A DNA stretch of 15,090 nt, taken from a virus (Duplodnaviria > Heunggongvirae > Uroviricota > Caudoviricetes). Numbering within the stretch: the first letter of the stretch is position 1; each line of letters starts with the position of its first letter. This document shows, piece by piece, positions 1 through 15,090 of the stretch. The stretch lies in the IMG/VR virus record IMGVR_UViG_2778261639_000008, positions 1 through 15,090 of that record; one strand, written 5' to 3'. The notes under the pieces are model-generated. The model was not told where the DNA came from and searched no databases. It saw only the letters and a program-made list of their open reading frames with translations. Both the position numbers and the translations under genes were made by a program.

Positions 1-97
1 CGGCCGTTTGGTAGTACTTAGGATAGCCAACCATCAGATGCTGCATTTGCATAGTGCAATCTCCCCTTACTTATCCGGAGGCAATTGCAATATCTCT

Positions 98-268
98 GTG
101 AACTTACACACTTTGTTTTACAAAGGAGTTTTTTTGTTCATCGCGATTTATATCGCGGCGCTACTGGCATATACCGCTCTAAACCGGACGCTTTGCGAAG
201 CGTCAATAGGACAGGGAGATGTGCAAGTGGCGGCAAAGTTTGCCTACGAAGCTAAGGAGAGTCGCTAA
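98..268 (+). CDS. hok: Hok/Gef-family type I toxin (small membrane host-killing peptide)
   Basis: The C-terminal 50 residues of the frame (FYKGVFLFIAIYIAALLAYTALNRTLCEASIGQGDVQVAAKFAYEAKESR) match the Hok/Gef pattern: one hydrophobic helix, then R-x-LCE, G, VAA and AYE, as in Hok [28 protein letters not shown]. The frame is open to the window edge, so the start is uncertain: GTG 98, TTG 113 (gives a 52-aa Hok-sized product) or TTG 134 (5 nt after the AAAGGAG at 122-128). Stop TAA 266-268 is followed directly by a GC hairpin. Confidence 0.6.
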   Translation: MNLHTLFYKGVFLFIAIYIAALLAYTALNRTLCEASIGQGDVQVAAKFAYEAKESR

Positions 269-272
269 ATCA

Positions 273-297
273 GGGCGGGGGTAACACCCCGCCTTTC
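273..297 (+). terminator. GC-rich hairpin immediately after the hok-like stop (mRNA 3' stem-loop or weak intrinsic terminator)
   Basis: GGCGGGG (274-280) pairs with CCCCGCC (287-293) around a 6-nt loop, followed by TTTCT. The U-tract is short, so this may be a stabilising 3' structure rather than an efficient terminator. Confidence 0.45.
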
Positions 298-330
298 TGA
301 CTGCGATCCACAGCCTGAGCACCTTTAAAC

Positions 331-360
331 GCCGCTCCTTCGGGGGCGGCTTTTCTTTAT
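331..360 (+). terminator. Rho-independent terminator
   Basis: GCCGCTCC (331-338), TTCG tetraloop, GGGGCGGC (343-350): an 8-bp stem with one G-U wobble, followed by TTTTCTTTAT. Confidence 0.65.
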
Positions 361-489
361 CTGCTGTTACCTCTCGCACAATCTTTTGTCTTATCTCATC
401 AAAAAACCATAATGGCATCTGCCACGGACAGGTAGCGAACTGCCTGTTTAACTGACTTTTAGCCATTGCATTACTCTTTGTGATGTTGA

Positions 490-523
490 GCCATTCCGCC
501 CCCGGAGTGGCTTTTTTTATTTG
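490..523 (+). terminator. Rho-independent terminator
   Basis: GCCATTCCG (490-498), loop CCCC, CGGAGTGGC (503-511): a 9-bp stem with one G-U wobble, followed by TTTTTTTATTTG. Confidence 0.65.
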
Positions 524-600
524 TACTACACGCCAGCGGTAACGCTGTTTTTGATCCTCCTTTTTCCTCGCTACGCTGCAAGCCTCACAAAGGGGGCGTT

Positions 601-1146
601 GTGACCATAAAAATAAGTAAACGAGATGATGTGTTTGCAAAGCTGGTAGCCAGTGAGCGGGAAGCGCCTGGATTCAGCTATGCAAAATCTCGCAACAGAG
701 AATACAAAGGTTTCAATGATGATTATCAGGCTGAAAAGTTGCTTAAAGACAACGAGATACAACAGGCCGTTAGCGTTTATCGAAAACACATCATTGCTAA
801 AGATATTGTTGGCAGACAGGAGGCATTGATTGACCTTTCAGCCCGTTTCCGTGCGCCAGACTCAACAGCGGTAATGCTGGAGTTACAGGCACTGGAGAAG
901 TTGCGCCTTGAACCGGAAGTGTTCCGTAGCCGTCTGGCGGCAATCGACACCAGAGCCATAAAAAATATCAAACGCACAAAGCATGGCTGGCAGGTTGAAG
1001 GGCTTGATAAATCACACCTTGCGGCGCGGATACTTTCGCTGGCGGGTGTTGATGTAAGTAAACCAATAACTGACGAGGGCAAACGAATCGCGCGAGACAC
1101 GCTGACTGAAATCTACAGGGATATTGGCGGCGATGACAGCGATTGA
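601..1146 (+). CDS. terS: Putative terminase small subunit
   Basis: 181-aa ORF with GTG start 6 nt after the AGGGGG Shine-Dalgarno at 591-596. Its stop overlaps the start of the large terminase gene (ATG 1133), the usual terS-terL arrangement. Assignment rests on position and size; I did not recognise a specific family from the sequence. Confidence 0.55.
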   Translation: MTIKISKRDDVFAKLVASEREAPGFSYAKSRNREYKGFNDDYQAEKLLKDNEIQQAVSVYRKHIIAKDIVGRQEALIDLSARFRAPDSTAVMLELQALEKLRLEPEVFRSRLAAIDTRAIKNIKRTKHGWQVEGLDKSHLAARILSLAGVDVSKPITDEGKRIARDTLTEIYRDIGGDDSD

Positions 1147-2542
1147 AATAACGCCAGAGAACGACCTAGAGCGCCGTAATTACTGGCTTTCTGACAAAAA
1201 GAAAATGTCAGAGTGGCGGCGAACAATGCGAGAGCTGACCACTAAGCCGCACCGCGTAAAGTGTCTGCGTGGTGGTCGTGGTTCCAGTAAATCATGGCGC
1301 ATTGCTGAGGCGTTAATTGAGTTGACTGTGCGTTATGACCTTCGAATTCTCTGTTTGCGTAGGGTACAGAAATCTATAGACGCGTCATCGCATAAGCTAC
1401 TTAGCGACACGATACGCCGTCTTGGTTATGAGTCTGAATTCACGATAACGCAGAACAGCATAAAGGCTAAATCTGGCGCGGAATTCAGGTTTTTGGGCTT
1501 TCAGTCAAATCTCGACAGCATTAAATCCATTGAAGGTGTGGATATTTGCTGGGTGGAGGAAGCACACGCGATATCTGCTGAGGCATGGGAAACGCTTGCA
1601 CCAACACTACGCCGTGAAGGGGCTGAGTTGTGGATTACCTTTAACCCGGCTTTCGCATGGGATGAAACATACGTTCGTTTCGTGCTCAACGCGGAGGATG
1701 ACTGGTTTGTAGAGGAGGTGAACTGGTATCACAACCCGTACTTTAATTCGACTCTGGATAAAGAGCGACGCTACACCCTGAAATATTACCCGGATAAATA
1801 CGACAACATCTGGAATGGTGTTCCTGTCAGTGATTTACCGGGTGCTGTCGTCAATCGTGGTCATCTTGAAAGGCTGGTGGTGTCGCCTGATTCAAAACTG
1901 GCGAAAGCCTGTCGAACTGGCGTTAAAACAGTGGTGCTCGATGTTGCCGATGAAGGTGATGATGATTCGGTGTTGTCTTTCTTTGACGGGCGTTTTTTGT
2001 ACCGTATGGAGCGATTACAGGCACGTGACACTGTTCAGCTAGCGCAGCAGGCGTTAAAGCTGGCAGCAGAGGAAGGTTGTTCCGTACTGATTTATGACTC
2101 TGTAGGCGTTGGTTCAGGTGTTAAAGGCGAACTTAACAAATACGAAGATTCAGACATTGAATTTCGTAAGTTTGTGGCTCAGGGCGAAGTGTTGCGCAAA
2201 AAATCCCGCTATCGCGGGGGGAGAGCCAACGAAGATACTTTTCACAACCTACGTGCTCAAGCGTGGTGGGCGTATCGTGACGCGGTTAATGACTCTGTGC
2301 GGTGGATGGAAACGGGAATTATGCCGCCAGATGGCTTATTTGCTATTTCAGACCAGATACCACGCCGATATCTCGATCGCATCCTTTCTGATTCTACTGG
2401 CGTCATGTGGGAAACCACGCCAGAAGACAAGATAAAAATTGAAGCAAAACCAAAGGTTAAAAAACGGCTGGGTGTGTCCACGGACTATGCCGACGCCATA
2501 TTCCCCCATCTGGTACGCATGAAATCAGGAATTATAGAATGA
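1133..2542 (+). CDS. terL: Terminase large subunit (PBSX / phage_term_2-type ATPase-nuclease)
   Basis: Deviant Walker A box LRGGRGSSKSW near the N-terminus and a Walker B-like acidic motif (VDICWVEEAH), with a C-terminal acidic nuclease region (VLDVADEGDDDS); 469 aa. The first ATG is at 1133, overlapping the terS stop; the track start at 1124 is a TTG. Ends in an ATGA overlap with the portal gene. Confidence 0.9.
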   Translation: MTAIEITPENDLERRNYWLSDKKKMSEWRRTMRELTTKPHRVKCLRGGRGSSKSWRIAEALIELTVRYDLRILCLRRVQKSIDASSHKLLSDTIRRLGYESEFTITQNSIKAKSGAEFRFLGFQSNLDSIKSIEGVDICWVEEAHAISAEAWETLAPTLRREGAELWITFNPAFAWDETYVRFVLNAEDDWFVEEVNWYHNPYFNSTLDKERRYTLKYYPDKYDNIWNGVPVSDLPGAVVNRGHLERLVVSPDSKLAKACRTGVKTVVLDVADEGDDDSVLSFFDGRFLYRMERLQARDTVQLAQQALKLAAEEGCSVLIYDSVGVGSGVKGELNKYEDSDIEFRKFVAQGEVLRKKSRYRGGRANEDTFHNLRAQAWWAYRDAVNDSVRWMETGIMPPDGLFAISDQIPRRYLDRILSDSTGVMWETTPEDKIKIEAKPKVKKRLGVSTDYADAIFPHLVRMKSGIIE

Positions 2543-3891
2543 CGAACAAAACCAGCTTAATTCCCACTGAGGGAATTCTAACAAAAGAGGGCTTACAGCC
2601 TGCCAGCTATAACATTGACAGCTACGTAACCATGATGGAAAGCGTGTCACATGGTGTTAAAGGTGCTGCCGGGATGGGTTCGCCAACGGCAAATCGGATG
2701 AAGGCCAGAGCCGCAGAGGGAAAAATTCCACTGGTGGCGGCTCTGGCTGGCGAAACATCCGGGATAGGCTGGCGCATCATCAGCGAACCGGTTGCTGCAG
2801 CGATGCTAAACGGGTTCGATATCATCACCGATAAACCGGAGGATGATAAAAAAATAAAGCAACTGTTTGATGATATGCGCATCTGGCAGAGCGTCGAACG
2901 CGCCACTGTGCTTAAACGTCATCAGGGCTGGTCGGTGCTGGTCATGGGTGATGATTGGGTTAGAAGCCATGGCGCAAACTGGATTACACCGTCAAATGAT
3001 TGGTTTTCTGATTATAACGACCCGCTTTTCGGTCTGCCGGAAGGCTGGCGTATTCAGCTTAAAAGCCCGATTGGTGGCGAGGTTTTTATTGAGCAAGACG
3101 ATTCACTACTTTTTGGCGATCCAGAGTACCAGCCGATTTACGGTAGTGCAGGTGTCGAATTTGGCGAGCCGGTTCTCTGTAAACCTTATGCATCATTGCA
3201 GCGTCTTGGCCTGTCTCATGAGTTAATCATCAGCATTCTGTCCCTGTCCGTACAGGATATTTATAAAAAAGATGAACTTGCAGAGGATTTAAAGTCAGCG
3301 AAAGGTGAAGCTATGGTGGCGCGTCGTCTGGCTGGTATCGCTGCTACCAGGCATTTGAATGACATGGTGGCAATTGATAAAGATGAAGAAATTACCCGTT
3401 TACAGTCCAGTATGACGGGAACCGCAGACCTTGTTGATATGGCTATCAAGCTGGTGTGCGCCGAAACAGGTTTCCCGGTATCAATGCTGGCTGAACGGCG
3501 GTCAGGACTGTCTAACAGTGATACCAGCGCAGATGCACAATGGCAAAACCTTGTTTCTCACATCACCACCAATGACATTATCCCGGCACTTAAAAAGCTG
3601 ACGTTGCGCTATTTGGGCGTAAAAGCTGACTTTATTCCTAACAAATCTCAGGGGCAGATTGACCGAGAGGTAGACAGGGACAAGAAAGTAGCGGAAACCG
3701 CGCAGATTTATTACCAGATGAGAGCCATCACCAGCGAAGAAGCCAGGGCAACAGCGAAGGAAACAGCCGCCGTAACACTCCTGACTGAGGCAGCGCCAGC
3801 AACAGGCACTATTGATGACCAGAATGACAAGGATTTGAACCAGAACGATACCGAAACCAGCAATAGTGAGGCCAATAATGCCGAAAAGTGA
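2539..3891 (+). CDS. Portal protein
   Basis: 450-aa ORF directly after terL and directly before a Mu F-like gene (SPP1-like order terL, portal, gp7-like). The acidic, low-complexity C-terminal tail (DDQNDKDLNQNDTETSNSEANNAEK) is typical of portals. I think it is the DUF1073-type portal family but cannot verify this without a search. Confidence 0.75.
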   Translation: MTNKTSLIPTEGILTKEGLQPASYNIDSYVTMMESVSHGVKGAAGMGSPTANRMKARAAEGKIPLVAALAGETSGIGWRIISEPVAAAMLNGFDIITDKPEDDKKIKQLFDDMRIWQSVERATVLKRHQGWSVLVMGDDWVRSHGANWITPSNDWFSDYNDPLFGLPEGWRIQLKSPIGGEVFIEQDDSLLFGDPEYQPIYGSAGVEFGEPVLCKPYASLQRLGLSHELIISILSLSVQDIYKKDELAEDLKSAKGEAMVARRLAGIAATRHLNDMVAIDKDEEITRLQSSMTGTADLVDMAIKLVCAETGFPVSMLAERRSGLSNSDTSADAQWQNLVSHITTNDIIPALKKLTLRYLGVKADFIPNKSQGQIDREVDRDKKVAETAQIYYQMRAITSEEARATAKETAAVTLLTEAAPATGTIDDQNDKDLNQNDTETSNSEANNAEK

Positions 3892-5233
3892 ACCACGTTA
3901 TGACGCTGGTTATCCACTGGCTATAGAACTGGTTTACGCGCAAAAGCTGGCTGATAACACCCGGCTTTTTTGTAAATGGGTTCGCGAAGCCTGTTTAAAG
4001 ACTTACCGGGCAATCGGTAAATCCGGCGCACTTCTTAATACTGATGCGGCTGATGGTAAAGATGTATCCGTTGATGATGTGCTGGGGGATTTTATTGCCG
4101 CTGCAACGGTTAAAAAAGTGCGCGTTTTTATCAAGCAACGGGCGGGTAAAAACTACTCCCGCATGACGCGTGAGCAACAAGAAAGGCTTATACGGTCTGT
4201 AACTCAGGAGTTATTGCCTGATGCGTCCATTTTCCTCAAAGCAATACCGGCATTATTAAAAGACGGGGAGTTTGGCGCGGTTCCGGCGTATATCGTCAGT
4301 GAAGTCAGAAGGCAGGCAGGTATAAATCTGGCTAAAGATTTTGCCAGAGTAACAAACACTGAGCCTGATACTTATATTCGCATCATTAACCGCACAGCCG
4401 ATGACATACAGAGCGCTATCGCAAACGGGAGTTTTGGTTTCACCGATGAATACTGGCAAAGCTATTACCAGCGCTTCCGCGTTGATGGCGTAAGCCTGAT
4501 TGACCTGAAAAAAGGGTTGCCAGCCACGCCAGACACGGCGGGGGCAGTCTCCGAACAGGTAGCAAAGTTATCTGAATCACTACGCACAACCAGTGTTATC
4601 CCGTCACTGCCAGCGATAAATACCACCACAACGCAACTTACCGATTCTGCTCTGGATGATTTCAGACTCATCATTAAAGCCGCCGCAAATGTTGACCTTG
4701 CGCCGGGTATAACTATTCCGCATGAGAACATGGCAGACCTGATAGCGGTCGATATTTATGACGGTGATAAAAAGCTATTGCAGCAAACCGCCGACTGGTT
4801 AACCGAGAGCATGGGACGTATGGAGAATGTTTCTGATGAAGCACTTCAACGCGGGATTAACACAGTACAACAGGGGTTACGCGAGGGGCGCGGCGTCGAT
4901 TACATCGCTAATAAGCTGGCTGATGAAATGGAGATACCTTTCCGGCGAGCCCGTAACGTTGCCCGTAATGAGATTGGTAATCAGGCATGGAACCTTGAGG
5001 AAGCCAATGCACGTATTGCCGGGATGAGCATATACCGCTGGCGGGGCATGTTAGACGAACGCGAGCGAAAAGAGCATGTTGGGCGCGAAGGTAAGGCATA
5101 CACGCCGACCAGACCGCCACGAGACGGGAATCCGGGTCAACCTAACGGTTGCCGCTGTTTTCCTGAATGGTTGTTCTCTGCGTCGGATGTGGAAGAAGCG
5201 GAGAAAGAAATTGCAGCAAGAAACACAGGTTAA
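3878..5233 (+). CDS. Head morphogenesis protein, phage Mu F-like / SPP1 gp7 family
   Basis: The C-terminal region carries the Mu F signature (RNVARNEIGNQAWNLEEANARIAGMSIYRWRGMLDERERKEHVGREGKAY). Probable start is ATG 3878, preceded by GAGG at 3868-3871; the track start at 3866 is a GTG. Overlaps the portal 3' end by 14 nt. Confidence 0.85.
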   Translation: MPKSEPRYDAGYPLAIELVYAQKLADNTRLFCKWVREACLKTYRAIGKSGALLNTDAADGKDVSVDDVLGDFIAAATVKKVRVFIKQRAGKNYSRMTREQQERLIRSVTQELLPDASIFLKAIPALLKDGEFGAVPAYIVSEVRRQAGINLAKDFARVTNTEPDTYIRIINRTADDIQSAIANGSFGFTDEYWQSYYQRFRVDGVSLIDLKKGLPATPDTAGAVSEQVAKLSESLRTTSVIPSLPAINTTTTQLTDSALDDFRLIIKAAANVDLAPGITIPHENMADLIAVDIYDGDKKLLQQTADWLTESMGRMENVSDEALQRGINTVQQGLREGRGVDYIANKLADEMEIPFRRARNVARNEIGNQAWNLEEANARIAGMSIYRWRGMLDERERKEHVGREGKAYTPTRPPRDGNPGQPNGCRCFPEWLFSASDVEEAEKEIAARNTG

Positions 5234-6224
5234 CGTTGATGCAATAAAACAATGGGAGATAACCCCGGAAGGTTATCTCCAGATTGATATCCCTATAGCC
5301 CGTCCGGGCGTACTGGTTTATGACCGCAATCGCGGTGATGCATTCACGGCAAAAGAGTACCGCTCAGCCGATGAATTGTTTAACCAGGACTCAATGAATA
5401 CCTTAATCGGCAAGCCTGTTACGGTGTCACATCCTCGTAATGGTCTGGTGACGTCAAAAAATTACCGGGCTGTCAGTGCTGGTGTGGTTACTGCCGTAAT
5501 GCGTCAGGGCGATGAATTGGTAGCCCGCGCTCTGGTTCAGGATGAGAGATCCATTCGCCTGATTCAGCAGGACAAAAGATTACGCGGGGCGTCGGCTGGC
5601 TACCAGTGTGACGAAAAGCCCAAACAAACGGGACGAGCCCCAGACGGGCAAGAGTTTGACACGGTGCAGAAGGGTATTAACTACAACCACCTGAGCATAG
5701 TGCGCAACCCACGGGTAAAGACAGCAACATTCAATCTGGACGGTGAACCGATGGAATTAGAAGAAGCGTTAGCCAAAATCGAACAACTGGAAGCGGATAA
5801 AAAAACGCTCACCAGCGACCTTAGCACGGCGCGTGGCGACTTGCTCAAAGCAAACAACCGCTTGGTAAATATGGATTCAGCCAGCAACGAAGCCTACGAG
5901 CGCGGCGTTACTGACGGTCGTCAGGAACATCAGCTTAAAGAAACAGCTAAACGACTGAACATCAATACCGACAGCCTGGGCGATATCAGTCTCGTTAAGC
6001 AGGCCATCATCCGTAAGGCAAATCCAGAAGTGAACATGGATAGCTGGAGCGATGAACAGGTTGATGTTGCGTTATCAATGGCGCTGGTGGCTTGCGGTAA
6101 AAAGTTTGAGCAAAAGCCGCGTAATCCACGCATCAACAACGATGAATCAGGTGCAGGCAAAAGTAATGATGCGCACAGTGATTATCAGTCCCGCATGTTT
6201 GGCAAAAAAGAGGCCGCAAAATAA
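5187..6224 (+). CDS. Putative scaffold / prohead core protein (DUF2213-like)
   Basis: Sits between the Mu F-like gene and the capsid gene. The C-terminal third is coiled-coil-like and charged (ELEEALAKIEQLEADKKTLTSDLSTARGDLLKANNRL), as in scaffolding proteins. The track ORF begins at 5076 inside the Mu F gene; the likely start is ATG 5187 or TTG 5211, the latter preceded by GGAG. Confidence 0.6.
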   Translation: MWKKRRKKLQQETQVNVDAIKQWEITPEGYLQIDIPIARPGVLVYDRNRGDAFTAKEYRSADELFNQDSMNTLIGKPVTVSHPRNGLVTSKNYRAVSAGVVTAVMRQGDELVARALVQDERSIRLIQQDKRLRGASAGYQCDEKPKQTGRAPDGQEFDTVQKGINYNHLSIVRNPRVKTATFNLDGEPMELEEALAKIEQLEADKKTLTSDLSTARGDLLKANNRLVNMDSASNEAYERGVTDGRQEHQLKETAKRLNINTDSLGDISLVKQAIIRKANPEVNMDSWSDEQVDVALSMALVACGKKFEQKPRNPRINNDESGAGKSNDAHSDYQSRMFGKKEAAK

Positions 6225-7015
6225 TGCAGACCACAATTAAAGGTGATTTTGACGCGGGATTGCCCGGTGATTTAGCTGTCCTGCCGTCTTTTCGTTCCTC
6301 TGCTCGCGTATCTTCCCGCCGCGCTGGTGGTGAAGTTGCGCCCGGTGATGCAGTAAAACTCACGTCAGGTAACGATTCGACCTGTGTTGCATTACCTGAT
6401 GGTGGTGATGTTACTGATGCCATCGGCATTGCGGTTACTGCACATTCCAACATGTCAGCCATGCCGGGATTTGGCAGTAACACCCGTATCGGCGTTGTCA
6501 CTATCAATTGCCCGATTGGTATCGTTGAAAATGGTCCGATCCGCGTAGCGGTAAAATCGGGTGAATCCCCGAAAGTGGGTGATTTGGCAATCCCGAAAGG
6601 CCGAAACGTCACTACCGGCTATATGGAATGGGGTGTTGCCAATTCTGGCGATAAAAGTCGTTTTCGCTTCGAATCAAACACTCAGCGCGGCGGTACAGCA
6701 ATTGTGATGGTTGTCGATGGTGAATTGCTGAGTGTGGGTTTTCCACATGAAACGCCTGTAATGGGTGTATCAGTTTCACCTAAAACCGCATCAAAGGCGG
6801 CTGGTGGTACTCAACAGCTAACACCAACCGTTACGCCATCGGGCGCAACAAATAAAGCAGTCACTTATCAGACCAGTAATGCAAATGTCGCAACTGTAGA
6901 CGCAAATGGCCTTGTCACTGTTAAAGCAGGGGCTACAACCGGGCAAACCGCGACAATTACGGTACGAACTGAAGACGGTGGTTTCACTGATACCGCTGTA
7001 ATTACTGTTAGCTAA
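6224..7015 (+). CDS. Capsid decoration-like protein with C-terminal bacterial Ig-like (Big_2) domain
   Basis: The C-terminal ~85 aa (VSVSPKTASKAAGGTQQLTPTVTPSGATNKAVTYQTSNANVATVDANGLVTVKAGATTGQTATITVRTEDGGFTDTAVITV) match the Big_2 Ig-like consensus closely. TAATG overlap with the upstream gene. Located between the scaffold and major capsid genes. Confidence 0.7.
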   Translation: MQTTIKGDFDAGLPGDLAVLPSFRSSARVSSRRAGGEVAPGDAVKLTSGNDSTCVALPDGGDVTDAIGIAVTAHSNMSAMPGFGSNTRIGVVTINCPIGIVENGPIRVAVKSGESPKVGDLAIPKGRNVTTGYMEWGVANSGDKSRFRFESNTQRGGTAIVMVVDGELLSVGFPHETPVMGVSVSPKTASKAAGGTQQLTPTVTPSGATNKAVTYQTSNANVATVDANGLVTVKAGATTGQTATITVRTEDGGFTDTAVITVS

Positions 7016-7032
7016 CAGGGAACCTCCGAAAT

Positions 7033-7971
7033 ATGAATGAGAAATATTTAGCCGCGTTGATGGCGCAGCTTTTTACCGAAGCTCAGGTAACTGGCGCAAT
7101 GCCGGGAGTTAACACCGACGAACAAGGGTTAATTTTTGCCCGCGACCTGATATCCATGTCTAAAGATGTTTACATGGAAGAAATGCCCGCCCCCGTAGCG
7201 TTAACTATGTTCCAGCAGGAGCCGGGGATTAACGAAGGGGCAAAGTGGGCGGGGTATCGCATGTACTCGGCACAAGGAATGGCAAAAATCATGGCGGCAT
7301 TCGGTACTGATATGCCGATGATGAGCGCTAAAGGCCGGGAATACTTCGCGCTGATGTACGATATTGGTCTCGGCTATGGCTATACCTATAGCGACGTTAT
7401 GGCAGCGGCAATGTCAGGTACGCCGCTTGATAACATGCTGGCGCTGAATACCCGCGAAGCGCATGAGCGCACAGTTTCAAATCTGTTGTGGCGTGGCAAT
7501 AAGGAATACCAGATTATCGGCTTTATCGAACATCCGAATATTCCTCTGGTAGCAGTAGCCGGTGCATGGGCGACGGCTGACGGTGATAAAATTTGCGATG
7601 ATGTTTCAGCGATTATCGCCGCAGTGAACACCACCAAAATCTACGAAGTAAATGAGTTCCATATGCCGTCTAAGGCATGGGCGCGAATTCAGGGGCTACG
7701 CCTTAGCGGTACGATCGGCACAGTCCTGTCATTCCTGCGAACCTCTTACCCGGAAGTGACTTTCCGCAAAAACTCCGATCTGGATGATGACGGTATTTGT
7801 ATTGCGCTGGCGAATAACCGCCGCCACTTTGCACAGGCTACCCCGGTATTGTTCCGTCAGTTGCCAGTGCAGCGTAGTGGGCTTGACCTGTCTATTCCTT
7901 GCCTGTCGCGCTCCGCTGGCGTAATCGTCCGTGCGCCGCTGGCTGCTGCTAAATCTTCTAAGGTAATTTAA
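7033..7971 (+). CDS. Putative major capsid protein
   Basis: 312-aa ORF at the position of the major capsid gene in scaffold, decoration, capsid order. I believe it is DUF2184-type, which typically accompanies DUF2213, but that needs an HMM search. Confidence 0.6.
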   Translation: MNEKYLAALMAQLFTEAQVTGAMPGVNTDEQGLIFARDLISMSKDVYMEEMPAPVALTMFQQEPGINEGAKWAGYRMYSAQGMAKIMAAFGTDMPMMSAKGREYFALMYDIGLGYGYTYSDVMAAAMSGTPLDNMLALNTREAHERTVSNLLWRGNKEYQIIGFIEHPNIPLVAVAGAWATADGDKICDDVSAIIAAVNTTKIYEVNEFHMPSKAWARIQGLRLSGTIGTVLSFLRTSYPEVTFRKNSDLDDDGICIALANNRRHFAQATPVLFRQLPVQRSGLDLSIPCLSRSAGVIVRAPLAAAKSSKVI

Positions 7972-7974
7972 GTC

Positions 7975-8229
7975 ATGGCTGATAAAGAAAAAGCGTTTCT
8001 GACCAACACCACACAAGCGCCGATTCATATCGGTGCAAAAAACAGTGAAGGGACTGTTATCACCATTTCGATTGCTCCGCTTGCCGCTGTAGAAGTTGAT
8101 ATAGCAACGCTGCAAATCGGCGGTGTTAAGCAGTTTATTGATGAAGGCTGGTTAAAAGTAGTTTCAGCCGCAGAAGCCAAAAAGCTCAACAAAGAGCACG
8201 ATGGCGTAGTTGAATCCGACGACGAGTAG
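7975..8229 (+). CDS. Small phage structural/head-associated protein, function unknown
   Basis: 84-aa ORF starting 4 nt after the capsid stop, with an acidic C-terminus; co-directional and tightly packed with its neighbours. Confidence 0.5.
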   Translation: MADKEKAFLTNTTQAPIHIGAKNSEGTVITISIAPLAAVEVDIATLQIGGVKQFIDEGWLKVVSAAEAKKLNKEHDGVVESDDE

Positions 8230-8238
8230 GGGCACAGC

Positions 8239-8598
8239 ATGACGGTAAACGATTGGCTTGCCATTCTGCTACCGGGGTTATCACTTGATGAGGGCGCTAT
8301 TAGCGCCCTTTCTTCTCAATGTGAGCGGCTATACGACCTTCGAGCCGCAGCGGATTACGGTTATGACGTAGAGCGCCTCAAAGCGCTGTATGTTGCCGCT
8401 AATCTCGCCCCGATAGCTGTTGAGGGAATAAGCGCCAGTGTTCGCGGGGTGGCAAGCCGCCGTGAAGGGAAAGTTGCAATGACCTTTACTGAGTCAGCAC
8501 AAAAGGCAGGCTGGCAGGGTACTACGTGGGGTGAGGAATTCTCAGACGCTATAGGCACATTGTCTGGTGGTTGTATTCTCATCGGTCATGCCGATTAG
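8239..8598 (+). CDS. Putative head-tail connector/adaptor protein
   Basis: 119-aa ORF at the head-completion position, with GGGG 8 nt upstream of the ATG. Family membership not verified. Confidence 0.5.
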   Translation: MTVNDWLAILLPGLSLDEGAISALSSQCERLYDLRAAADYGYDVERLKALYVAANLAPIAVEGISASVRGVASRREGKVAMTFTESAQKAGWQGTTWGEEFSDAIGTLSGGCILIGHAD

Positions 8599-8719
8599 CA
8601 GAATATTATCCTGATAAATGCGATTGGCCAGCCTTGGCGCCCACGGTAAAAAAATGGTTAAAGCGCACTTTCGCAGATGAATATTCCAGATTTTTAAAAA
8701 TGAATTCGGAGTTTGATCT

Positions 8720-9193
8720 ATGCGTGGTGGTGCAACGTTAGATACAAAAGGTTTTGACCGGGTTTTACGCCAGCGAATCAAGGGATTGGCAGGCGTAAAA
8801 CTGACTGTTGGTATTCACCGGGGAAAAACCAATAACGGCGTTGATGTGGCGCTTTATGGGGCATGGAATAACTTTGGTACTAAAAACGCGATGGGCTGGG
8901 AATTAATACCCGAACGTCCGTTTATGAGATTTGCATCAGACCGCATAGCCGACTGGATGAGGTCAAGCGAGTACAGAGATATTTTACGTGACGTAGCGCT
9001 TGGAAGAATAACACCTCAGCAAGCTATAGCCAGAATCGGCGCTAAAGCCGTGTCGATTACCCGCAAGACTATAGCTGACTCCGCACTATACAAACCTAAC
9101 TCAGATATCACCATCGCCCGGAAAGGGAGCACTAAACCGCTGATACATAGCGGGGTACTCATTCAGACCGTAAATTACAGGGCTTTTTCATGA
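8720..9193 (+). CDS. Putative head closure / neck protein
   Basis: 157-aa ORF with GGAG at 8708-8711; first in-frame start after the stop at 8714. Its stop overlaps the next gene start (ATGA). Confidence 0.5.
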   Translation: MRGGATLDTKGFDRVLRQRIKGLAGVKLTVGIHRGKTNNGVDVALYGAWNNFGTKNAMGWELIPERPFMRFASDRIADWMRSSEYRDILRDVALGRITPQQAIARIGAKAVSITRKTIADSALYKPNSDITIARKGSTKPLIHSGVLIQTVNYRAFS

Positions 9194-9543
9194 GACGATT
9201 AATCAAATTCTGGCAACCACTCCCTATTGAAATTGTGGGCGGCATGGTTCGCCAGGCATATTCAGAACAGAAAACAGCATTTCTCAGCATGCAGCCTGTC
9301 GATGGTGGCGGCTCCTTCCGTGCGTATCTTGCAGCACGTAAGCCTCAAGACTACATGGAGGCTATCGGGGAAGCTGATTTAGCAGTAACCGAGGAAGGCG
9401 AACATAACGGCGCTATCGTGCATTGTGCTGGCAAATATTATGAGGTGGTACAACGTCAGGAATGGCAGAACGGCGTCATTAGCCACTACGAGTATTTGTT
9501 ATTTGGCATGAAAGAAAAAGACGCATTAGAGTTGGTGGAATAA
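9190..9543 (+). CDS. Putative tail completion / neck protein
   Basis: 117-aa ORF translationally coupled on both sides (ATGA upstream, TAATG downstream). Confidence 0.5.
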   Translation: MRRLIKFWQPLPIEIVGGMVRQAYSEQKTAFLSMQPVDGGGSFRAYLAARKPQDYMEAIGEADLAVTEEGEHNGAIVHCAGKYYEVVQRQEWQNGVISHYEYLLFGMKEKDALELVE

Positions 9544-10325
9544 TGAGTATCTATACGGTTAAATTAATGACCGTTTTTGGGGAGGTCGATTATTCAGATT
9601 ACCATGCTGAGAAAGCGACTTTCACCGACAACGGAAACAGCAAGGATATCTTATTCACGCCATATAACGGGCGAGATCCATCTTTCATTACTTCGCTCAT
9701 TCTGGATGATGGTAACGGCAACAGCATTACCATTCCGGCAAATTTCCGCCTTGATGTGGGAAATGTCGTTAAGTTTCCCAAAGGGACGTTAAAAGAGACT
9801 GACGCTCAGGCTACACCATTGATATTAAGTGGCGCACCTTATCTTGCTATGGTTAGGCTTCGTCAGGCATTTCTTGAGCTAACAGGCGATAAACCACTAT
9901 ACGCCCAGCAAAAGCTACCAGAGCCTAAAGACCCGTTTACCGCCATTCATTTGCTTTCGTCAGCGCGTGAGCCGCAACCATTCGCCAAAACGTGGGACGG
10001 CGACTACAGGGTGTATCACTATAACTGTGCCGCTCAAATTATTGCGATTCGCTCATCTGATGACGCTCAGGCATATCTAGAAAACTTTCTTTATGAGATC
10101 GATTCAACTGAGGGGGAATTCTGGCAGTTTGATAACAACTGTTCTATTGACCGCTCAGGCGATTTCGAGAATAGCTCACCTCTAATTGATAACCTCGTTT
10201 ATCAGCAAATGGCACAGGTGACATTAACCCTGCAATTTGTTTTCCAGCACTACAAAAAAGAGCGCTGGATTGATAGCGCAACAGTGAAAGCGAACGAGGT
10301 TACGTTCCATATCAAGGGTGCATAA
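9543..10325 (+). CDS. Phage structural protein upstream of the sheath gene (tail terminator/sheath initiator candidate), function unknown
   Basis: 260-aa ORF immediately preceding the sheath gene (stop TAA at 10323-10325, next ATG at 10326). Confidence 0.5.
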   Translation: MSIYTVKLMTVFGEVDYSDYHAEKATFTDNGNSKDILFTPYNGRDPSFITSLILDDGNGNSITIPANFRLDVGNVVKFPKGTLKETDAQATPLILSGAPYLAMVRLRQAFLELTGDKPLYAQQKLPEPKDPFTAIHLLSSAREPQPFAKTWDGDYRVYHYNCAAQIIAIRSSDDAQAYLENFLYEIDSTEGEFWQFDNNCSIDRSGDFENSSPLIDNLVYQQMAQVTLTLQFVFQHYKKERWIDSATVKANEVTFHIKGA

Positions 10326-11684
10326 ATGGCGAATTTAAGCAGGCTTTTTAGTGTGAAAATTGGACGGCAAACAACAGCCGCCCAATATGGCGTTTTCGGT
10401 GTGGGGATTATCCTTGCACCGGGCGCAGCGTTTTTTGGTTTGAAGTATTCGACCTATGAAAGCGCAAAAGTAGAAAATTTCAAAGACCTGTACCGGGTTT
10501 ACACCAGTGCTGATGATGCGATTTCTGACGGCGTGAGTGGTGATAACCTGCTGGCGGTTCAGGCTTATTTCTCGCAGAGTCCATCACCAGACACACTCGT
10601 TGTAGGCGATTTTTCCGCAGCCTACAGCAAGGCCATGATTAAATTGACTGATGTTCCGGTTGTTGGTGCTCCAGCGGGCATAAAAGCGACCATTGGCTAT
10701 GTAAAGGGCGATGAATATCGTTATGCGAAATTTAACGGCACTGCATGGTCAGGAAGCACAGGGGTAGCGACTGATATCGTTGCTGATTCTGGCGCAGCAG
10801 GTCAGTTTCTTGTCGATGGGCGCATTGTTTATCTGGAAGGTGCGGAAGTCGTTCACAAATCATCTGTCGTACTGTCGGCGGCAGCTAGCCAGGCAATTGC
10901 AGCCATAAAGAACCAGTATAACAAGTTCTTCATGCTCATGACCCCATCACGCGACCTTTCAATTCAGAAAGTGATTGCTGACTGGACTGAATCGCAGATT
11001 GATAAAATGGCAGTATTTATTGATGACTATTCATCGCCAACATGGGCGACGGACAACATCACTAAATATATCTTTGAAAAAAATATTGCAGGTTCGTTTG
11101 CAGTATCAACCAAACGAGAAAAGAACTTCCTTGATGCTGCTCTGGCTGGTCGCTGTCTGGTTATGCAACCGGGCTCAGAAACATGGGCGCTTAAGACGCT
11201 TAATGCTGTACAAGCCGATGACTTTACCGAAACTGATTACCAGAAAATCAAGGCACTCAACGGTAACACGTTTGAGGATTACGGTTCCGGCATCACGGTA
11301 ACTTATCCGGGTACGTGTGGTGACGGTGAGTCGATTGAGGTTGTGCGCTTTGCTTACTGGCAGGCTGACCGCATGCAAAAAGACCTCGCAACGCTCTTTG
11401 TGAACCGTAACAAAGTTGGTCACGACATGCCGGGGTATGAAGTCGTTTGTAACAAAATGGAAAGCTCGCTTAAAGCAGGTCAGACTGCTGGCGGTATTCT
11501 GGAAAACTTTACCGACGAAAACGGAGATTATGTCCGTGGATATGAGGTTATCCGTCCAACAATGGCAGAAGTCAGCGCGACCCAGCGCATCAAAGGCGAC
11601 CTGACCGTTAAATTCAGATTCTATCTTCGCTACGCCATCAAGCATGTAGATGCTGTTGGTTCCGCACTGACCTACGGGATTTAA
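10326..11684 (+). CDS. Putative tail sheath protein
   Basis: 452-aa ORF immediately upstream of a ~140-aa tube-sized gene, a chaperone and the tape measure gene: the canonical contractile-tail order. Possibly DUF3383-type, not verified. Confidence 0.65.
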   Translation: MANLSRLFSVKIGRQTTAAQYGVFGVGIILAPGAAFFGLKYSTYESAKVENFKDLYRVYTSADDAISDGVSGDNLLAVQAYFSQSPSPDTLVVGDFSAAYSKAMIKLTDVPVVGAPAGIKATIGYVKGDEYRYAKFNGTAWSGSTGVATDIVADSGAAGQFLVDGRIVYLEGAEVVHKSSVVLSAAASQAIAAIKNQYNKFFMLMTPSRDLSIQKVIADWTESQIDKMAVFIDDYSSPTWATDNITKYIFEKNIAGSFAVSTKREKNFLDAALAGRCLVMQPGSETWALKTLNAVQADDFTETDYQKIKALNGNTFEDYGSGITVTYPGTCGDGESIEVVRFAYWQADRMQKDLATLFVNRNKVGHDMPGYEVVCNKMESSLKAGQTAGGILENFTDENGDYVRGYEVIRPTMAEVSATQRIKGDLTVKFRFYLRYAIKHVDAVGSALTYGI

Positions 11685-11686
11685 TT

Positions 11687-12115
11687 ATGTATTTAGGCAA
11701 TATGTCCTCAAAAGACTGGCTGATTACCGTAGGCGTTGTCCCGGTAATTGGCCTGGCGAAAGACAGCAACATCATCGTTGAAGTACCAGACGACCAGATT
11801 ACTGTTTCATCTGGCATCGGCGGTGACTGGTCATTTATTGAGAATCCTAGCGAGGAAGGCTCAGTAACATTCACCACGCAGCGTAATTCCCCGGTAAATA
11901 CCGCGCTGGCGCTGATGCAAAAAACAAAGGCCGTCATCCCTGTAACCGTAACCAATACGCGCAATCTTTCCGTGCACCGGCTGGGCTATGCGATGTTTGC
12001 CCGTCAGCCGTCTGATGGTGCAAATAACGGCGTCGGAGCGCAAACGCTGGAATGGAAACTCCTGACGGGTGAGCTTGATTCAACGATTCTTGGGGTGAAT
12101 TTAACCAATGGATGA
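11687..12115 (+). CDS. Putative tail tube protein
   Basis: 142-aa ORF between the sheath and chaperone genes; size and position fit a tube protein. Confidence 0.6.
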   Translation: MYLGNMSSKDWLITVGVVPVIGLAKDSNIIVEVPDDQITVSSGIGGDWSFIENPSEEGSVTFTTQRNSPVNTALALMQKTKAVIPVTVTNTRNLSVHRLGYAMFARQPSDGANNGVGAQTLEWKLLTGELDSTILGVNLTNG

Positions 12116-12593
12116 TTCAATCAAACACGTAGAAATTAACGGGCAAAAATACTGCATCATCCGTATGAGCGCCTTTGATGCAGTTCACTTCAACTTGCGT
12201 GTAGCTGAAATTCTGGCGAAACATGGTATCAGCCAGGTAGAAAGCATCCTTTCTATGTCGTCGAAAATCTTCGGTATGCTCAACCGCGAAGACCACGACG
12301 AATTGCTGTTTACGCTGCTTTCAAAGTCACGCGCCCAACTGGTGGATAACGGCGAATTTCTGGATTCTTGGGATGTAGTTAACACCAATTTCACCGCAGC
12401 AAACATTGCTGATGTGTATCTGGTGGCGCTTGAGTGCCTTAAATTGTCCATTCTTCCGGTAACAGCAGGGTTAAAAAAAAATATTGGGCTGGACACAGCG
12501 GCAACAATGCAGGGAGCCATGCGGCAACTGTTCAACGCCTTGCTGAAAACCTTGACCGAACCATCCGCACAGAGCTCGTCATCTGGCGAGTGA
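12108..12593 (+). CDS. Tail assembly chaperone, short (G-like) form
   Basis: 161-aa ORF immediately upstream of the tape measure gene, overlapping the tube gene stop. Contains the A9 slippery run at 12473-12481. Confidence 0.65.
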   Translation: MDDSIKHVEINGQKYCIIRMSAFDAVHFNLRVAEILAKHGISQVESILSMSSKIFGMLNREDHDELLFTLLSKSRAQLVDNGEFLDSWDVVNTNFTAANIADVYLVALECLKLSILPVTAGLKKNIGLDTAATMQGAMRQLFNALLKTLTEPSAQSSSSGE

Positions 12594-12724
12594 TTGAAAG
12601 CGGCCTGATTAGCTACGATGCCGTAGCGTCAGGCCGCGCCTCCTTCGATTCCATTATGAGAGCCTCCGCCGTTATCCAGTTCGATAACGCGGTTCAACAC
12701 GCGCTTAGTAAGGTGAAAAAATGA
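12108..12724 (+). CDS. Tail assembly chaperone, predicted -1 frameshift (GT-like) extended form
   Basis: The -1 frame is open from 12443 to the TGA at 12722-12724 with no start codon near its 5' end, and it is entered exactly at the A AAA AAA heptamer within the A9 run (12473-12481). The extension reads ...YWAGHSGNNAGSHAATVQRLAENLDRTIRTELVIWRVIESGLISYDAVASGRASFDSIMRASAVIQFDNAVQHALSKVKK and ends overlapping the tape measure ATG at 12721. Confidence 0.55.
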
Positions 12725-14676
12725 CAGACCAGTCAGCCGATCTCGTAACGAAAATTGACGTAATCCCCGAACTGGAGGGATTAAACAGTTTTGACGCAGC
12801 CATAGAGCGCGCAATTGCCAAAGTAAACCAGCTTGACGCAGCCATTAAGCGCGTTAACAACCTGAAACCCGCCAGCCCATATGCGCCAGCCAGTACCGCC
12901 AGTGCGCCATCTGTAGCAACAACGGCAGCAGTAGCGACAATAGCCGCCACAGGCGCAAATCTGGTTAGCCGGACGCCATTAGCCGATACAGTTAGAAAAG
13001 AGGCTCAGAAGCTCGCACGTGCAGCCGTAGAGGGTGCGGGGAATGGCGTTGCCGGATTATTACCGCCACCAGTACGTCAATTTGCTGGTGGAGGAGGTGG
13101 TTTAATGTTGCCACCTCCGGGCGGAGCTAATTGGTCTGCTGGTCGTGCTGGTGGTTTAGTCGATCCAAATGCCGGTAATCCATTTACCCGATACGATACA
13201 TCTATCAAAAGTTTCTCCGGGGAAGCGCTGGAGGCAAAAAAGAAACCTGTTGCAGAGGGTGCAGAGAAAGCGACACGCAATCCATTTGGTGTTGATAGCA
13301 TGCTGGCTGGCGCGGGGCTGACGGCGGGTATTGTCGCCGCTGGTAATGCTCTGGCAGACAGCCTTGACTCTATCCAACGCCAACAGGCACAAATTGCGCG
13401 TCTGGCACAGACTACAGGGGATGCAAAAGAGGCATTTTTTGCCCTTAACGCGGCGGCAAGCGACGTTAGAAGCGACAGCGGGGCGTTTATCTCCACCTAT
13501 ACGAATATGGCGACAGCAACACAAAAATTAGGGTTGTCGCAGGAAAGAACAATAACCGCAACACAGGGGCTTGTTGGGGCGCTGCAATTAGGCGGGGGCA
13601 GTGCTGATGCAGTAAATGCAGCGCTTTATCAAATGGGGCAGGCATTTTCATCAGACCGTTTCGGCGGCGATGAATTCCGCTCATTCATGGAAGCGATAGG
13701 GACGATGGCACCGAAAGTAGCTGAGGCGTTTGGTACAGACGTTAAAGGACTCCGCGAAATGTCAGAAAAAGGGAAGCTGACCTCAGAAACCATGATTAAA
13801 GCCTTTGAAAAGCTGGCGGCGAGCAACATAGATTTGTTGAAAAAACAGGGCTGGACGTGGGGGCAGACAATGACAGTCATGAAAAATGACTGGCAAGCCT
13901 TCTTAGCTCAGGCAACCATCGGCGGCGAGTGGCAAAAATTTACCGATTGGGCGGCAAATACCTTAATTCCACTGGCGAGGAAAGCCGAGAAAGAAGTTGC
14001 AGAGTTTTGGTCTACCCTGGCTGATGAAAGTAAAACAGCTATTCTCATTGGGATTCTTGGCGCTGTTGGCGCGGCATTTACCGCGCTGGCAGTTCCGGTT
14101 ATGGCGGCGCTTTGGCCTTTCCTCGCCATTGGCGCGGCTGTCTGGCTGGTCTATGAGGCTTTTGTTGAGTGGAAAGCTTGGTTGAATGGTGAAGGTGGAA
14201 CCATCTTTGATAGCTTATTCGGTAGTTTTGATGAATTTGAAAAGCGTTATCCAAATTTAATATCTGCTCTCAGAACTATTGTTAAATTAGCAAGCAAAGC
14301 AGCGATAAGCGTTAATTCTGCGACAAAAGACGATGAAAGTGATGGTGTTTTCATTGATGCGATTGAAAGTCCGTTGTCAGCAGTGGTTAATGGCTTATAT
14401 AACTTAACACCATTAGCCCCCACAGTTAGAGCGCTAAGTGGGTTAAATGATATGTTTGACCTGAATCCTCTACCGGGCATAGAAAACACACTAGGTTTAA
14501 TGCCTTCTTCCTCAACTACAGGGAGTCAGACCATTAGCAATAGTGGTAATAAGACTACGCACATTCATGTTAACAGTGGTAAGGAAGCCGCTGAAACTTT
14601 GAATAATATCAATGATACAGGAAACACCTACGGGAATATTGATGGTAATATTGCAGAATCGACAGGCGCGAGATAA
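12721..14676 (+). CDS. Tail tape measure protein
   Basis: 651-aa ORF downstream of the chaperone pair, with a tape-measure-type core (ATQGLVGALQLGGGSADAVNAALYQMGQAFSSDRFGGDEFRSFMEAIG), Ala/Gly/Pro-rich low-complexity N-terminal linkers, and an internal hydrophobic segment (ILIGILGAVGAAFTALAVPVMAALWPFLAIGAAVWLVY). Confidence 0.85.
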   Translation: MTDQSADLVTKIDVIPELEGLNSFDAAIERAIAKVNQLDAAIKRVNNLKPASPYAPASTASAPSVATTAAVATIAATGANLVSRTPLADTVRKEAQKLARAAVEGAGNGVAGLLPPPVRQFAGGGGGLMLPPPGGANWSAGRAGGLVDPNAGNPFTRYDTSIKSFSGEALEAKKKPVAEGAEKATRNPFGVDSMLAGAGLTAGIVAAGNALADSLDSIQRQQAQIARLAQTTGDAKEAFFALNAAASDVRSDSGAFISTYTNMATATQKLGLSQERTITATQGLVGALQLGGGSADAVNAALYQMGQAFSSDRFGGDEFRSFMEAIGTMAPKVAEAFGTDVKGLREMSEKGKLTSETMIKAFEKLAASNIDLLKKQGWTWGQTMTVMKNDWQAFLAQATIGGEWQKFTDWAANTLIPLARKAEKEVAEFWSTLADESKTAILIGILGAVGAAFTALAVPVMAALWPFLAIGAAVWLVYEAFVEWKAWLNGEGGTIFDSLFGSFDEFEKRYPNLISALRTIVKLASKAAISVNSATKDDESDGVFIDAIESPLSAVVNGLYNLTPLAPTVRALSGLNDMFDLNPLPGIENTLGLMPSSSTTGSQTISNSGNKTTHIHVNSGKEAAETLNNINDTGNTYGNIDGNIAESTGAR

Positions 14677-14686
14677 GGAATAAGCG

Positions 14687-14953
14687 ATGCCAAAAAATGA
14701 ATTTAAAAGCTTTGCAACATTCGAAACATTGATTACGCCAAAAATCATTACGATTGTATATTGGCTTGCCACGATACTACTTATCGTAGGTACTATTCTA
14801 AGCTGGTTGCAGCAGAGAGAAGGGGTAAGTATTAGCTTTGCTGTGTCACTTGTCGCAACAAGAGTTATTTTTGAGTTGATTATGGTTTCATTCAAGAATA
14901 ATGAATACCTTCGTAGAATCTGTGAGGCAGCAGAGGAAAAGAAAACAGAGTAG
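14687..14953 (+). CDS. Small two-transmembrane-helix membrane protein (moron; DUF4282-like)
   Basis: 88-aa ORF with AAGGAA 6 nt upstream of ATG 14687. Two hydrophobic helices (IITIVYWLATILLIVGTILSWL and VSISFAVSLVATRVIFELIMVSF) and a charged C-terminus. The FETLITPKIITIVYWL ... RVIFELIMVSF pattern resembles what I recall of DUF4282, unverified. Lies in an AT-rich block and is followed by a terminator. Confidence 0.6.
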   Translation: MPKNEFKSFATFETLITPKIITIVYWLATILLIVGTILSWLQQREGVSISFAVSLVATRVIFELIMVSFKNNEYLRRICEAAEEKKTE

Positions 14954-15018
14954 CCGCCAGCGGTCATGGCATGTTACCCACGCCGATAAGGTGTGAAAAT
15001 CCCCTCCACGTAGGTAAT

Positions 15019-15051
15019 GCCAGTCAGTTAAGCAACTGACTGGCTCTTTTT
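15019..15051 (+). terminator. Rho-independent terminator (perfect palindrome, potentially bidirectional)
   Basis: GCCAGTCAGTT (15019-15029), loop AAGC, AACTGACTGGC (15034-15044): a perfect 11-bp stem followed by TCTTTTT. Confidence 0.7.
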
Positions 15052-15090
15052 CGGGGCTGTGGGGTATTTCCAGGGCCTCTCCTTTACCAC

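Follow-up and report, generated by a model that had tools for sequence, protein, structure and literature searches.

A DUF4282 membrane-protein gene at a cargo hot spot behind the tape-measure gene of enterobacterial prophages

Small membrane proteins by which prophages block DNA entry shape the range of phages on clinical Enterobacteriaceae, and few families of such proteins are known. P22 SieA, HK97 gp15 and TP-J34 Ltp all act at DNA entry, and escape from them maps to ejection or tape-measure proteins; gp15 is bypassed via changes in the tail tube and tape measure, and Ltp via changes in the tape measure (PMC10883804). The SieA gene is located between the ejection-protein genes and the immI region, and the SieA types are very divergent, with one conserved C-terminal motif (PMC10883804). 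Tape-measure diversification also has a reason because membrane-anchored defences such as SNIPE contact tape-measure proteins (PMC13190303). Here we analyse a small gene of the DUF4282 family (positions 14687-14953, plus strand) that directly follows the tape-measure protein (TMP) gene in a 15,090-nucleotide stretch of a Caudoviricetes genome (IMG/VR record IMGVR_UViG_2778261639_000008, positions 1 to 15,090; the whole stretch is hereafter called the window). Two described proteins are close to it in placement or in form: HK97 gp15, a single-pass, YebO-like protein expressed from the prophage, is encoded by a moron which, in an account attributed to Cumby et al. in 2012, reportedly neighbours the tape-measure gene within the cluster for tail morphogenesis, and T4 Imm, with ~83 residues and two transmembrane (TM) helices, is a protein of the inner membrane and prevents DNA transfer by superinfecting T-even phages.

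The junction behind the tape measure is a hot spot at which genes for different small envelope proteins are swapped, with DUF4282 as the usual occupant in the window's prophage family, and we consider it highly probable that the DUF4282 gene belongs to the accessory cargo that temperate phages and plasmids carry and does not encode a structural part of the tail. The DUF4282 assignment itself is not new, since public records annotate it already; the new elements are the post-TMP hot spot, a replacement cassette of ~730 bp that joins the gene to the end of the TMP gene, an asymmetric conservation of the protein, and relatives that consist of tandem repeats.

A cargo site behind the tape-measure gene

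With a neighbouring gene, d1, as bait, presence and absence of DUF4282 were scored in 80 loci of the Klebsiella siphophage type that match Klebsiella phage Kp4864-1 in d1 at 99% identity or more. DUF4282 is carried by 4 of the 80, as a clean insert of ~301 bp that stands right after the TMP stop codon, before d1 and ahead of a shared terminator hairpin. The slot is empty (27-29 bp) in 30 of the 74 loci long enough to score, and the other occupied loci hold other small genes, of 62, 81, 158, 177 or 219 amino acids. A single TMP C-terminal type accompanies an empty slot in 22 loci, the 62-residue gene in 7 and DUF4282 in 3. Across the IMG/VR loci concerned (L146-L224) the slot is empty or holds at least one of at least five unrelated small genes without known function; the occupants are a 62-residue MNIMKVAIEVNGEV… protein, a protein of 81 or 82 residues, and proteins of 158, 177 (weakly MtlR-like) and 219 residues.

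The prophage family of the window (family A) was baited with its Dit-like baseplate gene, and 23 of the 28 loci so obtained carry DUF4282. One locus has a deletion remnant, two have an unrelated single-pass protein of 78 or 93 residues, and three have a signal-peptide protein of ~245 residues that contains a tRNA_anti-like OB domain (Pfam E 6.7e-12). These alternative occupants stand at L124, L144, L131, L141 and L142, of which the last two had been candidates for empty slots and were rejected as such, the ~245-residue protein being present; a truly empty slot was seen in none of the 28 family A loci, which show alternative occupants only. Pfam searches of the alternative occupants returned only the tRNA_anti-like domain and the weak MtlR match. 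Since exported proteins cannot be virion parts, the slot in family A holds cargo that acts on the envelope. A tblastn search of the phage database for relatives lacking DUF4282, with the Dit-like neighbour as query, gave no match.

The wider distribution was followed in 78 viral contigs and eight genomes carrying homologues, their neighbourhoods being read by tblastn against reference neighbours and by inspection of open reading frames (ORFs). Besides plasmids, at least seven different phage-genome slots hold homologues: the TMP-to-Dit junction of the window's family (slot A); a site of the baseplate module in a related family of myophages, between a 111-residue ORF and the spike and flanked by gaps of 139 bp and 59 bp (slot B); the position directly after the tape measure in Edwardsiella phage GF-2 and its relatives, with an Arc/Arc/Ant block next in GF-2 (slot C); the position directly after a TMP_3 tape measure in Klebsiella phage Kp4864-1 and related siphophage-like prophages (slot D); a standalone position in Pantoea ananatis, close to gtrABC, at which the gene persists even where adjacent tail genes are missing (slot E); a place next to a lipoprotein gene in the tail-tip region, between the gpI-like and gpJ-like genes (slot F); and one between lysis and terminase genes (slot G). 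DUF4282 is thus found directly downstream of TMP in three unrelated tail types, and the GF-2 family keeps this adjacency even at 35-38% TMP identity. A further copy, on a small IncFII plasmid, adjoins a toxin-antitoxin pair, and more distantly related DUF4282 genes are found on conjugative plasmids, in their accessory regions. In a Pantoea-type phage (L103) the gene is followed by an 83-residue ORF (8488-8739) with an …EHPEGSDLIYY… motif that may resemble colicin DNase immunity proteins. A survey of this kind had been proposed in a preliminary description of the window made from its sequence; it reveals slot-hopping across phage families and plasmids, with homologues conserved in related prophages and a family match found.

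Within family A the gene changes together with the end of the tape measure. Nucleotide identity in three comparisons of otherwise ~98%-identical prophages drops abruptly to 30-60% at ~14215 and is back above 90% at ~14945, which bounds a cassette that takes in the C-terminal ~150 residues of TMP and essentially the whole DUF4282 gene. The G+C fraction is 0.38-0.42 across 14125-15000 versus ~0.50 upstream; this low-G+C block includes the TMP C-terminus, and the drop coincides with the low-identity block of the cassette. The base composition of the DUF4282 region differs from that of its neighbours, as it does in morons. At the protein level, the sheath, tube, chaperone, TMP residues 1-500, Dit and plug are 72-99% identical within the family, the last ~150 TMP residues (TMP-C) 16-64% and DUF4282 44-86%. 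DUF4282 identity correlates with TMP-C identity (Pearson 0.87, Spearman 0.62, 35 distinct combinations), the corresponding value for the TMP middle or Dit being 0.47, and the 148 pairs with conserved flanks fall into two groups, one with both identities at 88% or more and the other with both at 63% or less. Clustering gave 20 TMP-C types (at 75% identity among 77 loci) and 12 DUF types. This link between TMP-C and DUF4282 is suggestive only. The extreme last ~45 TMP residues (…KEAAETVNN…GNIAESTGAR) are still recognisable at the protein level.

Such coupling might also be expected if the DUF4282 protein were a partner of the TMP C-terminal domain in the phage's own cycle, for example as a membrane chaperone that guards against insertion of the hydrophobic TMP into the membrane of the producer cell, or as a co-ejected factor that helps to form the DNA channel. 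Consistent with this, the gene starts 10 nt after the TMP stop codon and is tightly coupled to the late operon, the slot in the window's family is hardly ever without some small membrane or exported protein, and the adjacency persists in the GF-2 family at the low TMP identities given above. However, 30 near-identical Klebsiella-type phages with the TMP-C type of DUF4282 carriers have nothing in the slot, homologues are found in places remote from any TMP, on plasmids and in a Pantoea prophage that has decayed and lacks tail genes, and the alternative occupants have signal peptides, so that we regard a role as TMP partner as improbable.

The preliminary description had cast the gene as phage cargo. 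The presence/absence polymorphism, the slot-hopping and the plasmid copies agree with that view, but in the window's family the gene is not a free-standing moron, being embedded in the late tail operon and exchanged with the TMP C-terminus.

The DUF4282 protein and its family

Translation of 14687-14953 on the plus strand recovers exactly the 88-residue protein that had been quoted, with N-terminus MPKNEFKSFATFETLITPK, the motifs FETLITPKIITIVYW and RVIFELIMVSF, and the charged C-terminus NNEYLRRICEAAEEKKTE; an AAGGA Shine-Dalgarno sequence lies ~9 nt 5' of the ATG. Among 10 distinct alleles of the window's own type, the ratio of nonsynonymous to synonymous substitution (dN/dS) is 0.04 in the predicted cytoplasmic parts and 0.13 in the predicted periplasmic half, at a dS of ~0.75-0.93, and the ORF is therefore a protein-coding gene under purifying selection. 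That the ORF might be a chance frame, or that the antisense ORF overlapping it might be the real gene, could be argued from its shortness and AT-richness and from the greater length of the antisense ORF; this reading is effectively refuted already by the matches to curated hidden Markov models (HMMs), by hundreds of homologues with invariant motifs and by a dN/dS well below 1. The antisense ORF was rejected as a true gene, and its earlier dismissal as a composition artefact stands, for it has no Pfam or PHROG match and its frame is not conserved, only 45 codons being still open in the 86%-identical L032. We are almost certain that 14687-14953 is a real DUF4282 gene.

The family resemblance, which had been put forward earlier with an HMM search as the proposed check, holds at the curated threshold: the protein matches Pfam PF14110 (DUF4282) with 33.4 bits (E 6.8e-8; gathering score 27 bits) and phrog_12129 with E 6.8e-25, where residues 11-86 align over essentially the full profile (positions 3-78 of 79). 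The PF14110 scores of close relatives are 29-42 bits, over positions 1-85 of the 86 in that profile. DUF4282 is the only Pfam match above threshold, and NCBIfam and PADLOC gave nothing relevant for the protein. Among 5.8 billion proteins searched there were 79 relatives, 73-117 residues long; every one named by source comes from Enterobacterales, and many bear the name 'DUF4282 domain-containing protein' (also in RefSeq). Searching 1.84 billion representatives with a profile yielded 868 proteins at E <= 1e-3. With PF14110 and PHROG 12129 as a whole the protein shares the two-helix hairpin, an N-terminal F..ITP motif and, after R...E, an F-x-x-N-E-x-L motif behind the second helix; it differs in belonging to a tight subfamily of enterobacterial phages and plasmids with an invariant FKNNEYLRRI box. 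The DUF4282 family is without known function, so that membership is uninformative on mechanism. In precomputed annotations of P0001-P0029 the type-1 proteins, the window's own included, are also listed under PF28548, '4TM_phosphoesterase', a newer Pfam family that finds no mention in the literature searched.

In keeping with the two TM helices claimed earlier, AlphaFold2 predicts a helical hairpin of two hydrophobic helices (residues 18-41 and 45-86; mean predicted local distance difference test score 79), for which searches of PDB sequences and with Foldseek found no meaningful relative (best E 7). The hydrophobic helices and the positive-inside rule predict a location in the inner membrane, and by the same rule (K19; K70, R76 and R77) both ends of the protein should face the cytoplasm. 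In an alignment of 61 homologues, F12, T17, P18, Y25, R59, F62, E63, the run F69-K-N-N-E-Y-L75 and I78 are invariant, R59 and E63 being located within the second TM helix (TM2); the near-invariant cytoplasmic motifs are F12..L15-I-T-P18 and R59..F62-E63..F69-K-N-N-E-Y-L75..I78. Positional entropy is correspondingly low in the N-terminal F..LITP (0.69 bits), the cytoplasmic half of TM2 (0.68 bits) and the FKNNEYLRRI box (0.17 bits), and high (2.2-2.8 bits) in the outer halves of both helices and the loop. If the predicted topology holds, the half of the hairpin facing the periplasm is thus hypervariable and the motifs facing the cytoplasm are near-invariant.

Five proteins from the representative search (P0081, P0083, P0088, P0091 and P0114; 341-632 residues) consist of five or six tandem DUF4282 hairpin units; the DUF4282 motifs repeat in each unit of P0081, P0083 and P0114, and in P0081 and P0083 the tandem units are followed by zinc ribbons at the protein ends. 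This architecture suggests that single units could assemble into a ring or bundle, and the DUF4282 protein probably acts as a homo-oligomer. An oligomer of this sort would also suit some other host-acting cargo, namely a small oligomeric channel or membrane sensor concerned with abortive infection by membrane depolarisation, plasmid entry exclusion or a change in envelope physiology, and not with a specific block of TMP-mediated DNA entry. The membrane-embedded, invariant R59/E63 pair and the relatives with five or six repeats, both suggestive of a ring or bundle, favour such a role, as do the moron-like mobility, the copies on plasmids and in regions of conjugative elements, the broad distribution of DUF4282 and the missing coupling to TMP type in the Klebsiella family. 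Nevertheless, it leaves unexplained both the post-TMP placement in three unrelated tail types and the cassette shared with TMP-C, and there is no PADLOC match; we consider it somewhat unlikely.

Candidate function and expression

Superinfection exclusion at DNA entry is the known kind of function best supported by these features, the gene being optional, mobile and placed beside tape-measure or tail-tip genes, its product having a fast-changing periplasmic and an invariant cytoplasmic face, and its exchange involving the end of TMP. We therefore put forward, as the most plausible though still tentative reading, an inner-membrane superinfection exclusion protein that blocks TMP-dependent DNA entry, with a mechanism that we infer along the following lines. 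The protein would sit in the inner membrane of the infected or lysogenic cell, where its variable, periplasm-facing half would interfere with membrane insertion or channel formation by the TMP of an incoming related phage; incoming DNA would thereby be kept from crossing the inner membrane. The role of the invariant motifs facing the cytoplasm would be to keep the oligomer assembled or to bind a conserved partner.

An exclusion protein of this kind would have to be expressed from the prophage or early in infection. Promoter and terminator calls were made by consensus scans, whose matches are not proof of function. On this basis, the gene outside family A tends to carry candidate signals of its own: L019 has TTGTTG-N16-TATAAT, with a perfect TATAAT 38 nt upstream of the gene, and a strong terminator; the Pantoea copy and the L153 copy each have a promoter-like site and a terminator; the GF-2 copy has a terminator at its stop codon; and the L093 copy has terminators on both sides. 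In family A, the spacer between the TMP stop codon and DUF4282 measures 8-20 nt and contains a Shine-Dalgarno sequence, such short spacers recurring in all cassette types, and the 10-nt spacer of the window is too short to hold a promoter. An extended -10 element at 14643-14651 (TGgTAATAT) was not accepted as a promoter, as it arises from the conserved G-N-I codons of TMP and varies between alleles.

Several points weigh against exclusion at DNA entry. Scans of the window and of L003 found no sigma-70-like promoter and no terminator for the gene in the window's family, where it is translationally close-coupled to the late tail operon, and expression in lysogens is only presumed for that family. 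The mapping of TMP-C types to DUF types is mostly, not strictly, one-to-one, the coupling is absent in the Klebsiella family (family D), and co-inheritance of TMP-C and DUF4282 is partly trivial, the two segments being adjacent. Within one allele type no positive selection was seen, the periplasmic half having the dN/dS of 0.13 given above. PADLOC, Pfam, NCBIfam and the PDB revealed no homologue among known exclusion or defence proteins, and DUF4282 finds no mention in the literature searched. Finally, DUF4282 is widespread outside mobile elements (the 868 representatives), and the basic activity of the family may, given this spread, be something general.

A more far-reaching proposal, which we think unlikely in its full extent, is that DUF4282 hairpins are widespread, unrecognised oligomeric gatekeepers in the inner membrane, by which phages, plasmids and conjugative elements act against incoming DNA, and that in the window's family the hairpin would form with TMP-C a co-exchanged two-part specificity cassette in the manner of key and lock. 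If this were true, a swap of the ~730-bp cassette would re-programme both the entry range of the phage and the exclusion range of the lysogen. Were exclusion at DNA entry to prove correct, a function would be assigned to a family of hundreds of representatives, the variable TMP C-terminus of these prophages could be understood as a target in an arms race, and TMP passage across the inner membrane could be studied with the cassette as a natural swappable system; if not, the gene is an ordinary annotated DUF gene in a prophage.

The surrounding prophage and described systems

The remainder of the window is a head-and-tail module with genes for the terminase, portal, a MuF-like protein, major capsid, sheath, tube, chaperone and tape measure, as read from ORFs and from the Pfam labels of identical proteins; the features around the DUF4282 gene are collected in Table 1. 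The TMP has a hydrophobic segment at residues ~445-485, and its identity profile per 50 residues marks the C-terminal ~150 residues as hypervariable. An IS4 insertion 21 bp upstream of the start of the Dit-like gene parts the DUF4282 gene from the remaining tail operon here, and with its late tail operon cut in this way this genome's prophage is probably defective in assembling tails. Near the gene there is a single terminator-like hairpin (15019-15044), which was rejected as the gene's terminator since it lies inside the IS4 end.

Table 1. Positions of features at and around the DUF4282 gene of the window
Feature	Position	Strand	Description and basis
Tape-measure (TMP) gene	12721..14676	+	651 amino acids; Pfam TMP_3 (annotation of identical protein); ORF
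Replacement cassette	~14215..14945	+	~730 bp, approximate bounds; TMP C-terminal ~150 amino acids and essentially whole DUF4282 gene
Antisense ORF	14512..14967	-	151 amino acids; judged a non-gene (no Pfam or PHROG match, frame broken in relatives)
Spacer, TMP stop to DUF4282 start	14676..14686	+	10 nt, contains AAGGA ribosome-binding site; sequence
DUF4282 gene	14687..14953	+	ORF, 88 amino acids, ATG start; two predicted TM helices, predicted N-in/C-in; Pfam and PHROG matches
Conserved spacer to Dit-like baseplate gene in uninterrupted relatives	14954..15014	+	Alignment to L003
IS4 end	15015..15090		Matches IS4 ends of phage and E. coli records at 100% identity; breakpoint by L003 alignment

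The identical DUF4282 protein occurs on many E. coli contigs, in a prophage adjoining hipA, and related prophages occupy other chromosomal sites in Salmonella, Citrobacter, Klebsiella and E. coli CX12. The gene order in family A is sheath (E217_gp31_N), tube, chaperone, TMP (TMP_3), DUF4282, Dit-like, Pam3_gp18-like plug, holin, lysozyme, DUF2514 and prophage end, which places the lysis cassette (holin-lysozyme-DUF2514) ~1 kb, or two genes, downstream of the DUF4282 gene. This proximity, together with the small size, the two TM helices and the charged C-terminus, would suit a lysis protein, in the form of a class-II-like holin, pinholin or antiholin that times lysis with the downstream cassette. 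However, the cassette has a holin of its own (Phage_holin_2_3) ahead of the lysozyme, no holin family in Pfam or PHROGs is matched, and in other contexts the gene is mostly not beside an endolysin and is found on plasmids too; a lysis function is accordingly very unlikely.

The layout of the family (L001/L018, E. coli CX12, NZ_CP073719, and L003-L011, L015-L017, L022-L024) is unusual in that the baseplate J/wedge genes and a beta-helix tailspike-like gene stand at the opposite end of the prophage, and the right end after holin-lysozyme-DUF2514 is common to different chromosomal sites in four genera. Truncation to a remnant was rejected as the cause of the missing baseplate genes because the element ends after DUF2514 at different sites in E. 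coli, Salmonella, Citrobacter and Klebsiella, and also because the wedge genes stand at the other prophage end in CX12. A Salmonella plasmid R1 variant (L028; NZ_KY749247, 10756-15263), which is a conjugative IncF plasmid, carries a fragment of the tail module in its resistance region, with IS1 copies on both sides; the fragment comprises the tape measure, DUF4282, Dit-like, plug, holin and lysozyme genes, with a piece of DUF2514 beside the upstream IS1. In the CX12 relative (L001) a Hok/Gef family toxin gene (2421-2555) lies just upstream of the small terminase gene, and the gene at 4815-6188, equivalent to window positions 2539-3891, is named 'anti-CBASS protein Acb1 family protein' in RefSeq versus Phage_portal_3 in precomputed Pfam annotation; the Acb1 name on a gene in the portal position is probably a problem of annotation transfer.

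Among described systems, class II holins such as S21 of phage 21 share with the DUF4282 protein the small size, two TM helices and a charged C-terminus, but the latter has no holin HMM match, its prophage has a separate holin, and there is usually no adjoining endolysin. T4 Imm is the closest match in size and topology, although it is an early gene of a virulent phage and not a prophage moron; no homology to it was detected, though no search was aimed at it. With P22 SieA the likeness is one of placement, the DUF4282 gene of GF-2 occupying an analogous position between the tape measure and an immI-like Arc/Arc/Ant block, whereas SieA has 162-164 residues, three predicted helices and an unrelated sequence, and targets the ejection proteins of a podovirus, not a tape measure. 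HK97 gp15 likewise is a small inner-membrane protein, a location that is predicted for the DUF4282 protein, and is encoded in the tail cluster beside the TMP gene; the two have no sequence similarity, and gp15 is single-pass, is expressed from the prophage and excludes phages, an activity that for the DUF4282 protein is a proposal only. By analogy with these systems, the DUF4282 protein may work like HK97 gp15, P22 SieA or T4 Imm.

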